Shown in pieces: positions 9,001 to 15,000 of a stretch of 23,125 nt of DNA. A program made the position numbers. Origin of the DNA: a virus (lineage: Duplodnaviria; Heunggongvirae; Uroviricota; Caudoviricetes); the IMG/VR virus record IMGVR_UViG_2778261064_000008; one strand, written 5' to 3'. Position 1 is the first letter of the stretch, and every line of letters starts with the position of its first letter.

Positions 9001-12000
9001 GAGCGGTCTCCGTGCTCCAGCCCTTCGGCAGTATCTGCCCCACAAACATACTCTTCATCCGGATCCGGCAGTTCCCATACCAGCAGATAATTCATCAGCG
9101 TCCGCTGCAACTCGTTTTTATTTCCTTCACGCAGAGACTGAGCTTTAGTCTTCGCTCCTGTAACAGGTTCAATGTCATAAACAATCATCGGTGGCGAACA
9201 GAATGATTCTGCCTGCAACGTACTTTCGGCACTGAACACACGTCGTCCGGACGTCAGAAACGCCTCCTGTGGCGTTGAGGGAAACTCCTGCTTCATTTCC
9301 TCACGCTGTTCAGTTTCCTTACTGATGTACCACTGCTTCTGCTCATCGGTAAGCGTGATGTTCATTGCCTTCTCAACCGCAGAAAAATACGTCATTTTTT
9401 CCCGTGACATCTTCAGCCCGCTTTCAGGCACTCTGGCGCTGTATTTAGGATCCTGCCACCATGCGTAAAAATGGAATTTATAATCCTGTGCCGTCAGCAA
9501 TAAGCCTGATGCAGTGATCTCCTGTGCACGGTTACTCATATCGTAAAAATCACCACCCACGCCTTCAGCCGTGGATTCATCAAAAATAATGCATTCATCA
9601 GAGACGGCATTAAGCGTACCAGTTCGCAGCTCTTTCGCCTTAGCCGGATATTTCGCGCAAATTTTGCCGTGCTCTGAGATATGCAGGCGCTGCACCGTAC
9701 CTGAGCGAAATGAGGTTGCCACCTGAATACTCGAGCCGTGACCAAACAGGATATAGCCACCGCTGGCACCGCTACGACGTTCAACGATGGTGAATGAGGC
9801 TCTCAGCCAGTCAGGGAGATGATCAAACGGTACAGCAATTTTTGTGCGGAAAATTTCACTGGCAGCCTGTTTATCCTGAGCGACGATCCCGCATTTGAGA
9901 TGCGGAATGAATAATGCCTGGTCGAGAAGATAAATATCAATGGCTGTGGAAAATCCCAGCTGGCGCGCTTTCAGGATAATATTTTTATTGTGCATGCTCC
10001 GGAACAACTGGCGCTGCGCCGGTCGCATTCTGAAGGTGACCAGTTCACCTTTTTCGTTCTGTATTTTGTAGAGATGATTGAGCCGCCACCAGGGATTGCT
10101 CAGTTTAGTCATGATGAAAAGACGTTGTTCGGCTTCAGTCATTTCTGACGGCTCATCACATCGCGGTTCATTCTTCCGGAATGTCATCCAGTCTCCCCGA
10201 ATTACTCATTTCATGCAGCGATGACACGATGTCACTGACAGGCGTAACAACGCCCCGACGCTGGCTGGTCAGAATATCGGTTTCAGCTCTGAGTTTATCT
10301 CTGGCGGCGTTGATTCTTTCCCGGTCAGCACGAAGTTTTGGTGCTGTCTCAGCCAGGACGTCCAGTGTCAGCAAAGAACGTTCAATTGATTCTATACGGG
10401 CAATATTCCGGTCAAGAGCCTGTTCGGCTTTAAGTATTTTGTCGTACAGAGCTACCCGTGTTTCCACGTCAGCCGCCTCTTTCAGGTCGGCGAACATCTT
10501 TTTCAATGTTCCTGTTACTGAAAGTGCGCGGGCACGGGTAAACACCAGTTCATCGGCAAGTTCCATTCCGACTGCATCATCTATGAGGTTATCTGCCTCG
10601 AGATACTTCGCGTATCCACGGTGTCTGACGGCGTGGGTGTTACGCTGAGAAAAAGCATTTGAAGGTGGCAAAAGTCTGGAACCACGAGTCCGTTTCGTTT
10701 CTGCCAAATTTGCGCATTTTTCATCACAACCATCATCGCCTGAAGGCTCGTCATGACTGGAGTTGCCGTCAGATTTCTGCGCACTTTTTTGATCATCAAT
10801 TTGCGCATTTTTCTGCGCACTTTTCTCTGTATTTCTGGGGGAGTGTTTGCGCAGTTTAATGTACCGCCGAGCCGTGTCATAACTGATATTGTTCTGACGG
10901 CACCAGTCCTGAAGCTTTATGCCGGTTTTGACATGTTCGCGTCGAAATGCCTGCTCCAGCTTTTTCCAGTCCAGCTTTGCCATGTCACCTTCTGACGTTC
11001 TCTGTTAAAAACTGATGCACAATGACTGCTGTAAATTTTCAGATTTCACACAGCAGAGCCATGTCTGATTAATGTTTAACCTTATTTAGGTTATATCCGC
11101 TTCATTCCACTACAGCACCAGATAGGCTGCCTCGCGGATAAATGCTAAAGTCTCCTGATATAGAAACCCGTCGCCACATCGAGCGCTGATCAACATTTGT
11201 ATATTCACTGCGACAGAAAAAATTTATTTTATTGAATAGTTAGAAATACAGAATTGCATGCTTTATAAGCATTGACGTACACTTCATTTTTAGCAATATA
11301 TTCTGTTCTCATAGATGATCAGCCCTGCATGCACTGCCGGACACCGTCGGCAATTTTACAGACCTAAGAGGCAATACCAAAAAGCTAACGCGCTTTATCA
11401 AGACTTGAGCAACCAACCAATAAAAAAAGCACCAGTACCGCTACCAGTGCCCATTTCGTCGTTGTTCACAGCATTCTGTGTACCCACTGTATTTCGCATC
11501 ATATCACCACGTCAGACAATCCTTAAGGATTACATAAGATTTACGCATAATAATGCCCATTTTCAACACAGACAAGGGAATTTATATGTTAAATCAAACG
11601 CTAACAAAATCTCTTCTTATATTTTTACTTGTCATAATCGTTTCTGTATCCATCATATACATTGTAAGAACTCCAGTCAGACTTGATGTGAATGATGTCA
11701 CTGAGATTAACCAGAAACATCCCATTATTTTTCTCATCCGGCATGGGGAAAGATGCGATCGCTCCCAAAGAATATGTCTTTCAGCACATGAGGGAATCAC
11801 AGTAAACGGAGCTAACAAAGCTCAACAATATGGAGATAAATTCAGAAGAATGTTTCCATACTACAGTCTCTATTCTACAGACACACTCCGAACAATGCAG
11901 ACAGCCACTTTTTTTTCGGGAGGTAAGACAGCAACTATTCCGGACATATCGACATGTGATGATAACGCAGTAAATAACATCCTTAAAATATCAAAATCAG

Positions 12001-15000
12001 ATCACGTTACTGTGATTTTCACACATAATCACTGTCTGTCCAGAATTGCAAAAAAAATGAATGGATGGAAATTTAAACCTGATTATATGGGCACACTGGT
12101 TCTGCATCGGGAAAATCACAATCTGATTCTCGACGGACATTTAAAACCAAACGAGCTTACCCAGTGATCCATTTGTTGATAATGCCCTGGCATTGATTCA
12201 GGTTATATCTCTCCTCATAAAAAAGGCCAGCGATTGAGCTGGCTCTGTTAATCGAGGCATTGCATCCTGATGTACTCCTGCAGGTAGTTAACCTGCGCGG
12301 TTATCTTGTCGATTCCACTTCGGAGACGGTAATAATTGAGTTCAGCATCTGCTGTAAGTCCTGAGCTTTCTCCATCGCCCATGCCGCTGGCTCCGGTCGT
12401 TGACTTTGCACAGGTGGCGGCGACTTGCAGGCGCTTACGCCCAGCAGAAACATCAGCACGGAGACTTTCAATAGTCGCGTTAGCATCAGCAAGCTCCCTG
12501 GTGTATCTGGCATCGAGTGCAGCAACATCACGCTGGCGCTGCTGTATGTCAGTAATGGTGGCGTTCGCCTGGCTGAGTTTTGTCTTCGCATCATCTCGCT
12601 GCTCTTTGTAGGTGATGGCGTTATCACGGTAATGGTCTGTTGCCAGCCACAGCGATCCACAACCAAGCAGCAGGACAATAATCACCACACACAGAACACG
12701 GTTCATATCCCCCTCACCCCACCAGCCCTGACAAAGTTAAGACGCGCCAGGCAGTGGAAAAGCAAATAGCAACCAGCATTAGTGAAAATGAAATGCCGAC
12801 GATTACACAGAGGATCTTCGCCAGCGTTATGAGCTTGTCTGACATGCTTAATCCTCTTCACGATTTCAACGCAATGACCAGTTTTGCCAGCCCATACAGC
12901 ATCGGAGACACAGCAATACCGACCGCCACCCACTTAATAGCAAAAGCCAGCGCTCTGCTGACGTCATCAGTTACAGGCGCTTTCAGTTCAAGGCCGTTTT
13001 TCATAGTCAACCTCAACAGAATTCGTTTATACTTCGCCATGTTCTCCCTTGCCTTACTCAAGGTCAGAAACACAAAACCCCGTTTGCGGCCAACAAACGG
13101 GGTTTTACTTTTATTCACTTAGTTTTTGCCAGTTCGCAGGATTTCGTGTTATCCGCCCGCGTTGGCCAACGTCATTTTTCAGCAAAATATTCTGCTTATC
13201 TGTCAATTCCCCAGCACGCCAGCGCACTTTCCTGATCTCGCCGGGATACCTGACCGTAGCAATTATTTGAGCGGATACGGCAGTCTCTGCCACCGTCCTT
13301 AATCCACCAGCGAATCGCTTCGCAGGCACCTTTTCGATCTCCTGCATTAATTCGTTTATAAAACGTCGACGGGAAACACTTACCGGGGCCAATGTTATAC
13401 GGACAGAATGACGCGATCCCCGCTTTCTGGGGTTCCGTCAGTGGCACTTTGATGTTTTTCTCCACCCATGCCAGCGCCTTATCACGTTCAATGGCGTTAA
13501 CCTGGTCGCATTTCTCCTTCGACAACTTCATGCCCGGGACGACAGGTTTACTATCCACCAGAATGGCACCGCGACAGATGGTCCAGATACCCGCGCCATC
13601 ACGGTATGCTGTTGTGTGGTTGCCTTCCTTTTCATCCAGAAACTGGTCAAGGATTTCAGGCGCAGAAGCACCTGCGGCAATCAGCGCCAGAACGGCAGCC
13701 GATAAACCATAGCGGAGTTTCCTGCTCATCAGCTTACTCTCCCCGCGCCGCCTTACGCCGGTCTTCTTTAATTTTGAAATACAGGTTCGTCAGGTACGTC
13801 AACAGACCAAACAGCAGACTCCCCAGTACGCCTATTGCCGCCCACTGAGACGGGGAAACCCTGTCCAGCAGCTGCAGGAACCAGTAGCCCGTCCCCACCG
13901 CTGACGTGGTGTATGACACACCTGTTGTGATTTTTTCCATCTGGTACATACCCCGTCTCCCGCAATCCGGAAGCTCACAACAACAAGAGGGGCATCAGCT
14001 CACACCGACAGCCCCTGCGCATGGTTACATCATCATTTCGCCGTCAGGCTGAGGCTCACTGCCACCATCAGGCTGAGACACGACACCATCTGAAACAGCA
14101 CTGTCACCCGCACCGTCTTCAGGCCCGGGAGCAGCCGGTACCCCCAGCAGTTCATCCAGAATGGCATCCACTTCAGCATCAAGACGCGCCTCAAGATTCT
14201 GACGAAGTTGCTGTTTCAGTGCGCTCCTGACTTCTTCAGAGCGCAGGACATCCTTCACTGCTTCAGCAGTGACCAGCGATTTTATTTCTGACATGGTATT
14301 TTCTCGTTGAAAGGTGTTGTTAAGAAAGTTGCTACGGAATGAGAGACTCTTCGGGTTTTGTTCCGGCTGACTGACTGGCGCTGATTTTCTCAGCGGCCCT
14401 TTTGTCAATCTGTCTGCGCCAGAAATCTCTCACGACTCTGTACCCACCAGAAAGAAGATACAGCACACAAACTGCTGTACAGAAATACAACATAATCAGC
14501 TGTAAAAATGTCATTATTCATCTCCATTATTGACATGGTTAATGCCTGCCAGTAAAAAAACTCCTGCATTTTTTGCTCAGCATATTTTTGCTAAGGATGT
14601 AGCGACCTCTGCCGCCGGTTCTGGCTCCTTGTTTTCCCTGCCCCGGCGGCATTTTTTTATCCTGCTTACGCGTTATTCACTTCCACTGTTATACTTTCAA
14701 TCAGCACCGTATACGTCGCCGCTTTTGTGATATCCGTTACACGTAATTTGTCTGCCGCAAAAGAACCTACCGGAGACTGCGACAGCATGAACGGTGCACC
14801 ATCCTGACCATCAATCACCGGCGTCACCTGAATGCTGTTATTACCGGCAAAACGGAAGCCCAGCGTATGCCATTCGTTGTCAAATGCGCCGAATGACCCC
14901 AGCTTCGTGTTCTGGTCAGCGTTACCCTTGTGGTACATCACGTTGAGGTCTGTGGCATCGCTCTGTACGTAAAACGACGCCAGCAGATTGTTACCGGCAT

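Follow-up and report, generated by a model that had tools for sequence, protein, structure and literature searches.

What is an AT-rich gene with the hallmarks of a host lipopolysaccharide (LPS) enzyme doing between the packaging and lysis genes of a lambdoid prophage, pointing against its neighbours? The question is raised by the virus record IMGVR_UViG_2778261064_000008, a stretch of 23,125 nucleotides (hereafter the window, to which all coordinates refer unless a locus is named) that is a portion of a short-tailed lambdoid, Sepvirinae/Oslovirus-like Escherichia coli prophage with its late genes on the minus strand. The gene occupies 11586..12167 on the plus strand, opposite to the late genes, and encodes a 193-amino-acid histidine phosphatase of the Ais/PmrG subfamily; it is the single convincing gene in the 1.26-kb interval (10984-12247) between the gene for the small terminase subunit (terS) and the Rz-type lysis gene. 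The answer towards which we lean, given its sequence and that of its relatives, is that it would be a PmrA/BasR-controlled, membrane-anchored moron phosphatase acting on the LPS inner core.

The gene product is a paralogue of the Ais/PmrG histidine phosphatases with all catalytic residues present. The Pfam family His_Phos_1 (PF00300) matched the N-terminal part of the protein (29.1 bits; cut-off 21.7), the NCBIfam model PRK15416 (NF011945), which describes the “LPS core heptose(II)-phosphate phosphatase” subfamily, matched residues 10-187 (203.3 bits; cut-off 142), and BLASTP against K-12 Ais (b2252) gave 43% identity over 158 amino acids (E = 5e-44). Chromosomal proteins score 366-392 bits on PRK15416, with Ais itself at 392. 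The PmrG equivalog model NF052369 gave 114 bits against a cut-off of 170, and it does not separate orthologues from paralogues here because K-12 Ais itself, like the Salmonella chromosomal protein, falls below the cut-off (146 bits). A comparison with PHROGs assigned the protein to none of its families (best E = 0.028). The catalytic motif RHGERCDR is encoded at 11739..11762 on the plus strand (codons 52-59, with RHGERCD at residues 52-58), His53 being the nucleophile, and six of its eight residues are invariant among 43 family members. Across this 43-member alignment R52, H53, R56, C57, D58, R59, C64, H147 and C150 are invariant, and conservation reaches at least 90% at E55, R102, N148 and H149; in an alignment of 13 sequences C124, too, hardly varies. 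R52-H53-G54 form the RHG motif and R56, R59, R102, H147 and H149 provide the second Arg/His set, as judged by their placement in the sequence, and the full catalytic set of the branch-1 histidine phosphatases thus appears to be present. The four conserved cysteines are as expected for an exported, disulfide-bonded domain.

Because a sequence search of the PDB with the phosphatase gave no match at E ≤ 1, the fold was tested by structure prediction and structural comparison. The AlphaFold2 model built from the family alignment (predicted local distance difference test score 91.5, predicted template modelling score 0.84) consists of an N-terminal helix at residues 2-26 followed by an alpha/beta domain, and Foldseek matched it to SixA, phosphoserine phosphatase, CobC and PGAM5 (E ~1e-7 to 1e-5, probability 1.00). 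The ratio of nonsynonymous to synonymous substitution rates (dN/dS) was 0.19-0.25 against five diverged paralogues, and the gene has therefore been maintained by purifying selection. The first-pass annotation, made from the sequence alone, had proposed a histidine-phosphatase motif, a resemblance to Ais and a hydrophobic N-terminal anchor or signal. The motif and the resemblance are borne out by the family models, the BLASTP match and the predicted fold, similarity in the BLASTP and profile searches being significant and the catalytic His53 invariant on alignment; the N-terminus is indeed hydrophobic and modelled as a single helix.

Where would such an enzyme reside? The N-terminal hydrophobic helix (codons 2-26, 11589..11663 on the plus strand) is predicted to be an uncleaved signal anchor. 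Members of the window clade begin with a stretch of ~19 uncharged residues followed by RTP and have no small-x-small site, whereas the hydrophobic stretch of the chromosomal Ais/PmrG clade closes with ...HAAWSS, a signal-peptidase-type site. This difference, together with the model, suggests that the window-clade enzyme is tethered to the membrane rather than soluble, and the predicted helix and the four conserved cysteines are consistent with export.

What would drive its expression? PmrA boxes consist of CTTAAG and xTTAAT half-sites 5 bp apart, or of a YTTAAK direct repeat (PMC3973317, PMC10927774), and a second half-site with a base other than T at its second position (CCTAAG) has been experimentally verified at pbgP (PMC3973317). 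When the window was scanned for YTTAAK-N5-YTTAAK with at most one mismatch, a single site was returned from the entire 23 kb, the predicted PmrA/BasR-box-like direct repeat CTTAAG-GATTA-CATAAG at 11522..11538 on the plus strand, 47 nucleotides before the ATG. It is followed after 10 nucleotides by the -10 hexamer AATAAT (11549..11554, plus strand), without a usable -35 element. A scan for consensus sigma-70 promoters found no complete plus-strand promoter ahead of the phosphatase gene, which is what would be expected of an activator-dependent promoter. In composition-matched first-order simulations, the probability of finding such a box in the 130 nucleotides upstream was ~0.006, and ~0.0008 when a correctly spaced -10 was also demanded. 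The layout is as in K-12 arnB (CTTAAG-GTTAA-GTTAAT, 10 nucleotides, TAAAAT), and K-12 eptA has CTTAAG-GTTGG-CTTAAT with a -10-like element 10-12 nucleotides further on. In the K-12 ais-arnB intergenic region (L002 2622-2910), read on the ais-sense strand, the sole PmrA-box-like site is the arnB box in reverse, ~190 nucleotides upstream of the ais start, and chromosomal ais therefore does not have the compact arrangement of box, 10 nucleotides and -10.

The box recurs at the same position in four of the five other types of cassette that have a promoter of their own, with zero to two mismatches and with its end 47-54 nucleotides before the ATG. The window cassette has one mismatch, and the cassette at locus L019 has none (CTTAAG-GATTT-TTTAAG, -10 AATAAT), nor does that at L020, which is grouped with it and has TTTAAT as its second half-site. 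One mismatch each is present at L026 (GTTAAG-ATTTC-CTTAAT, -10 CATAAT) and L024 (ATTAAG-CGTTA-TTTAAG, -10 AACAGT), and two in the cassette shared by L008 and L010 (ATTAAT-TGCCT-CATAAG, -10 TATAAT in L008). These paralogue boxes carry more weight, because the promoter-proximal DNA is in other respects too diverged for alignment with blastn. In silico, they make a good case that PmrA/BasR, or conceivably the closely related QseB, drives the phage-borne clade. At the other end of the cassette, the GC-rich hairpin GCCAGC-gattga-GCTGGC (12226..12243) lies between the convergent phosphatase and Rz genes and is followed on the minus strand by CTTTTTTAT, as found in a terminator scan; it is likely a bidirectional terminator. 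The same hairpin is kept downstream of the paralogues that adjoin the same Rz type (L014 and L016), and every cassette has a hairpin after the stop codon, those of the other cassettes differing in sequence.

Is the gene part of the phage backbone or was it added to it? The insert was delimited by comparison with related Oslovirus-type phages that do not have the gene, P13374 and PhiR12_3. Homology to both runs through terS and stops at 11137-11158, and with P13374 it restarts at ~12255. The DNA immediately upstream of terS (10984..11158), ~84-85% identical to P13374 and PhiR12_3, is backbone outside the insert, and the cassette itself spans approximately 11159..12247 on the plus strand, comprising a remnant of donor flank, the promoter, the phosphatase gene and the terminator hairpin. 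A gene for a Rha-like regulator occupies the Rz-terS slot in the Shiga toxin 2 (Stx2) phage P13374 and other Oslovirus phages (L012 1176-2221), and in PhiR12_3 the slot is empty (L013 1221-1521); it is therefore a hot spot of cargo exchange in this phage group. Base composition also sets the region apart, with a GC content of 0.36-0.42 over 11000-12200 against 0.47-0.55 in the flanks, and of 0.375 in the phosphatase gene alone (0.33 at third codon positions) against ~0.50. With predicted promoter-like elements, the hairpin at 12226-12243 and this deviant composition, the region has the features of a moron, a self-contained transcription unit that should be expressible from a repressed prophage. 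The first-pass annotation had described a separately acquired, AT-rich moron at the position of lambda bor, with a plus-strand gene at 11586..12167 between terS and Rz and opposite to the late operon. The gene coordinates, the high AT content relative to the flanking phage genes and the separate acquisition (supported by the GC content, the slot polymorphism in P13374 and PhiR12_3 and the cassette's own promoter- and terminator-like elements) all hold; the span of 10984-12247 given for the moron was too wide, since the insert covers ~11159-12247 and the rest is backbone.

In phage lambda, bor lies between the lysis and packaging genes and is oriented opposite to the late operon. The window cassette resembles bor, and the moron of Juhala and Hendrix generally, in occupying the lysis-packaging slot in opposite orientation with its own predicted promoter and terminator and a deviant composition, and in encoding an envelope-related product that a repressed prophage could make. 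The two proteins are not related to each other. Bor, which has been linked to serum resistance, is a small lipoprotein, whereas the window product is an enzyme, and the window promoter, unlike that of bor, appears to be wired to a two-component system of the host.

The block upstream of the promoter (11249..11504, minus strand) carries a trace of how the cassette may have travelled. It is a decayed gene for a 60-amino-acid phage lipoprotein (phrog_7528; equivalent of the open reading frame at ~11319-11505) together with its 3' flank, and its nucleotide sequence is ~75% identical to the region upstream of the 72%-identical paralogue P0006 in other prophages. Intact copies of the lipoprotein (L008, L010 and L019) read MNRKHWTHRMPRTAAKWALVAILVPFLLVGC..., have the lipobox LLVGC or LLSGC and match phrog_7528 at E = 1e-35. 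The window copy keeps the lipobox LLVGC, has no in-frame start and contains three in-frame stops, at CGA/CAG codon sites, where homologues have Arg or Gln. Suppression or recoding at the two in-frame TAG codons (Gln positions) was considered and rejected, as the start is also lost and a further TGA is present; ordinary decay through C-to-T changes would explain the TAG codons. Within the same pseudogene, what scored as a strong minus-strand terminator at 11452..11427 falls in the part that codes for the signal peptide, and the intact copies retain it as coding sequence; it is probably not a functional terminator. In phiP27 an intact lipoprotein gene directly follows a holin-holin-endolysin series; the role of the phrog_7528 lipoprotein is possibly associated with lysis. 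The simplest history consistent with these sequences would be that the phosphatase gene was first inserted between the endolysin and lipoprotein genes of a donor-type phage, and that a piece of this donor then moved into the present backbone, where the lipoprotein flank has since decayed.

How widely does this arrangement recur? A homologue search over 5.8 billion proteins found 73 homologues, nearly all from E. coli and close relatives, which by identity form a chromosomal Ais/PmrG cluster, the group of the window protein and several plasmid or island groups. Within the window group, where identities to the window protein are 50-84% overall, P0003 (83%), P0004 (76%), P0006 (72%), P0019 (64%) and P0027 (about 55%) are all encoded directly after lysis genes and on the opposite strand. 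The endolysins of these paralogue-bearing prophages vary (lysozyme, GH108, M15 peptidase), and at four of the five loci a terS/Nu1 terminase gene, again of varying type (Nu1/GpA, Terminase_2/6N), lies on the other side; at L016, IS1 cuts the locus just upstream of the paralogue gene. The window gene thus belongs to a clade that recurs at the lysis/packaging slot of diverse lambdoid prophages.

Relatives outside this slot lie on other mobile elements. Three paralogues that are 57-69% identical (L025 3357-3941, L027 4001-4582 and L017 6001-6582) are found directly downstream of AraC-family regulators or beside chaperone-usher/CS1-type fimbrial operons and insertion sequence (IS) elements, and one homologue, P0069, is called “transcriptional activator AfrS” in its source. 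These settings and this name suggest that the family is linked to fimbrial expression and that an enzyme was once mistaken for a regulator. A common 193-amino-acid relative that is 43% identical (P0035; indexed in 817 collection blocks; L004-L007 8001-8582) is encoded beside a SPATE autotransporter, in a conserved block that also holds an EAL-domain gene and two alpha/beta hydrolases and is flanked by IS elements; the block probably belongs to a virulence plasmid or island. Neither P0035 nor the copies adjacent to AraC-family genes had a PmrA box upstream. Homologues were also present in ~1440 plasmid records, 1383 of them conjugative and mostly IncI1-like, and the full-length matches listed are ~46% identical. 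The IncI1 homologue is labelled “TraG” and lies in the transfer region, as in O3K_25647 of pESBL from O104:H4, and a transposon screen scored TraG of pESBL as dispensable for transfer (PMC4288162). Our literature searches on IncI1 TraG as a phosphatase and on afrS gave no functional description of the gene.

The IncI1 TraG, P0035 and AfrS-type relatives share with the window protein the Ais subfamily, a length of ~191-210 amino acids, an anchor-like N-terminus and a location on mobile elements; they differ from it in being 43-66% identical and in their settings and regulation. The chromosomal Ais/PmrG proteins, which are periplasmic and under PmrA control, share with it the PRK15416 match, the RHxERCDRS...R...THNHC framework, the four cysteines, a similar length, a putative N-terminal export signal and AT-richness, and the window promoter resembles in its architecture the PmrA-box promoter of arnB, the neighbour of ais. 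Unlike them, the window protein (43% identical; 203 against 392 bits) is encoded by a prophage and not next to the arn operon, and it has the long uncharged helix and RTP in place of the signal that ends in ...HAAWSS.

The cassette is conserved where it occurs. Of 5426 complete E. coli genomes, 43 have the 1264-bp region at full length and at least 99% identity, in each case in the chromosome. The hosts belong to unrelated lineages, among them ML35, isolates from cattle and pigs, and the O104:H4 lineage of the 2011 outbreak. Among 50,697 phage records one has the gene, the Stx1 phage GER2 (Oslovirus), where identity is likewise at least 99%. RefSeq and the NCBI Prokaryotic Genome Annotation Pipeline (PGAP) already name the gene by homology, including in O104:H4. 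It is a mobile-element-borne representative of an enzyme family that is already known, and its slot is a classic one for morons. A literature search for phage-, prophage- or Stx-phage-borne Ais/PmrG returned no description of such a gene or of its function.

How might the pieces work together? Under conditions that activate PmrB/BasS (Fe3+, Al3+ or acid pH), phosphorylated PmrA (BasR) would bind CTTAAG-N5-CATAAG and activate the promoter that has no -35, so that the moron would be transcribed from an otherwise repressed prophage alongside the LPS-modification regulon of the host. The N-terminal helix would insert as an N-in/C-out signal anchor and place the catalytic domain, in which the four conserved cysteines probably form disulfides, at the periplasmic face of the inner membrane. 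There the enzyme would strip phosphate from the LPS inner core before or during export, the target, by homology with Salmonella PmrG, being the heptose II phosphate added by WaaY. Loss of this phosphate would lower the negative surface charge, and the lysogen would better tolerate cationic peptides and metal cations and may lose a determinant for phages that depend on phosphorylated heptose. The biochemistry is anchored in PmrG, which dephosphorylates heptose II, an activity known only for the Salmonella protein (cited in PMC8129183). Salmonella that has lost waaY resists LL-37, histones and a lactoferrin-type peptide, with a fitness cost of ~1% (PMC3720879), and waaY mutants resist several E. 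coli phages and regain sensitivity on complementation (bioRxiv 10.1101/2024.11.29.626071).

A number of observations weigh against this reading, beginning with the regulation. At L014, the paralogue cassette nearest to that of the window (83% identical), the first half-site has been lost, the paralogues behind AraC-family genes have no box, and the window box has one mismatch and was sought because the regulation of the family was known. The signal-anchor call, for its part, comes from inspection and the AlphaFold2 model rather than from a dedicated predictor. On the functional side, deletion of pmrG/ais in PmrA-constitutive E. coli leaves resistance to polymyxin B unchanged (PMC8129183), which makes the polymyxin angle the weakest part of the functional speculation in the first-pass annotation. 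The gene could plausibly still protect against Fe(III) or cationic peptides other than polymyxin, or mask phage receptors, as loss of the opposing kinase WaaY gives both kinds of phenotype. The substrate could differ from that of Ais at 43% identity, the gene is rare, and the complete-genome lineages that were checked (for example O104:H4) also hold chromosomal ais, so that the moron gene is a second copy. A second copy could be of benefit through dose, the membrane tether, another core type or another substrate.

An alternative that we consider unlikely, if not lightly dismissed, is that the main selected function is phage-receptor masking, a form of superinfection exclusion in which removal of the heptose phosphate protects the host and its prophage. 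The resistance of waaY mutants to several coliphages and its reversal by complementation are in line with such a role. The tail-fibre region of the related O104:H4 prophage includes a gene annotated as the exclusion lipoprotein Cor, so that exclusion functions do exist among these phages, and the homologues on IncI1 conjugative plasmids would suit a theme of surface exclusion. IncI1 thin pili bind the LPS of the recipient. However, a conserved PmrA-type promoter without a -35 implies that expression is conditional rather than constitutive, and exclusion genes are not usually expressed in this way; a PADLOC scan of the region gave no defence family at E ≤ 0.1; and phages LL5 and LL12 are little affected by loss of waaY, so that protection would be narrow.

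Next comes the view, also unlikely, that the protein is an Ais-family phosphatase with another substrate or role and that the heptose(II) name has simply been transferred by homology. Candidate substrates or roles would include the phosphate or pyrophosphorylethanolamine (PPEtN) group of heptose I, the lipid A 1-diphosphate, undecaprenyl carriers, or a function as an accessory in the assembly of pili or fimbriae. The distance from the chromosomal proteins (43% identity to Ais, and 203 bits against 366-392 on PRK15416), the separate cluster with its different N-terminus, the placement of clade members beside AraC-family regulators and chaperone-usher fimbrial genes (one of them named AfrS) and the position of the IncI1 “TraG” inside a transfer and pilus region all point in this direction. 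Against it, RHGERCDRS, the four cysteines and most columns near the active site are invariant between the window clade and chromosomal Ais/PmrG, and the predicted PmrA-box promoter ties the gene to the LPS-modification regulon. AT-rich DNA is typically silenced in E. coli, the adjoining lipoprotein gene in the cassette is clearly decayed and the cassette is rare, yet we consider it very unlikely that the gene is an H-NS-silenced remnant that hitch-hiked by recombination and is at present functionless in the phage, given an intact open reading frame with all catalytic residues, a dN/dS of ~0.2 against the five diverged paralogues, full-length conservation in 43 genomes of unrelated lineages, and predicted promoter, Shine-Dalgarno sequence and terminator that are all retained. 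A PmrA/BasR-controlled inner-core phosphatase stays the reading that we favour.

The open reading frame of the phosphatase spans 11553..12167 on the plus strand, and ATG 11586 is the start used in RefSeq and in most homologues. The 193-amino-acid product is preferred because the Shine-Dalgarno sequence AAGGGA (11574..11579, plus strand), read from the sequence, is placed 6 nucleotides before this ATG. The upstream ATG at 11553, which would give 204 amino acids, was rejected, as it overlaps the predicted -10, has no Shine-Dalgarno sequence and most homologues are 191-194 amino acids long. An open reading frame of 123 codons at 11315..11686 on the plus strand is spurious, running antisense through the lipoprotein pseudogene and into the phosphatase gene. 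To the left lies terS (10168..10983, minus strand), a backbone gene annotated as “terminase” in the O104:H4 prophage and as “DNA packaging protein” in GER2, and then the large terminase gene (8481..10187, minus strand), followed by portal and capsid genes. To the right lies the Rz-type spanin or lysis gene (12248..12706, minus strand), also part of the phage backbone and annotated as “lysis protein” or “outer lytic membrane protein”; the lysozyme gene (13196..13729) stands between it and the holin gene (13734..13949). No tRNA genes were found in the window, and an Rfam scan of the region gave no match.

The window is a close relative of the Stx-converting phages, and GER2 has stx1 in the region that matches ~16631-17341. 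In the window this segment, between an open reading frame resembling a SASA esterase and a Q-like one, contains no stx-sized entry in the list of open reading frames. The window prophage thus appears to be an stx-less relative of the Stx-converting phages. E. coli ML35 (NZ_CP025747.1) holds the cassette at 99.1% identity. ML35 is the classic laboratory strain for assays of membrane permeabilisation by antimicrobial peptides. It would be a convenient test system, and results obtained with it may have been influenced, unnoticed, by the cassette.

Phage-encoded modification of LPS has its best-known examples in gtrABC and oac, which glucosylate or acetylate the O-antigen. As with these systems, a temperate phage would alter the LPS of its host from the prophage state and thereby change both the surface and the receptors that phages use; unlike them, the window enzyme would take phosphate from the inner core rather than act on the O-antigen. 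No description of a phage-borne LPS core phosphatase was found in the literature that we searched. What is new here is the clade that recurs in this slot, its distinct N-terminus, the conserved predicted PmrA-box promoter and the hitch-hiking lipoprotein pseudogene, and at present these findings stand as a well-supported annotation joined to an in-silico prediction of regulation.

Tentatively, the locus may represent a distinct clade of membrane-anchored, mobile-element-borne, Ais-like LPS-core phosphatases whose phage versions have kept a PmrA/BasR promoter, and in which a single enzymatic step would yield both tolerance to cationic peptides and metals and loss of a heptose-phosphate phage receptor. 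If so, it would be the first LPS core phosphatase encoded by a phage and would exemplify a moron under the control of a host envelope sensor, and dephosphorylation of the inner core would join the functions of lysogenic conversion. Relatives on IncI1 plasmids and beside fimbrial operons would suggest that mobile elements and LPS core phosphate are linked in a general way that is as yet unstudied. Prophages of O104:H4, an Stx1 phage and livestock isolates would bring with them an enzyme of surface charge that is switched by the Fe3+- and acid-sensing PmrAB system of the host. Because loss of WaaY gives resistance to human LL-37 with hardly any fitness cost and blocks several phages, a transferable phosphatase of this kind would matter for gut colonisation and for the choice of therapeutic phages.

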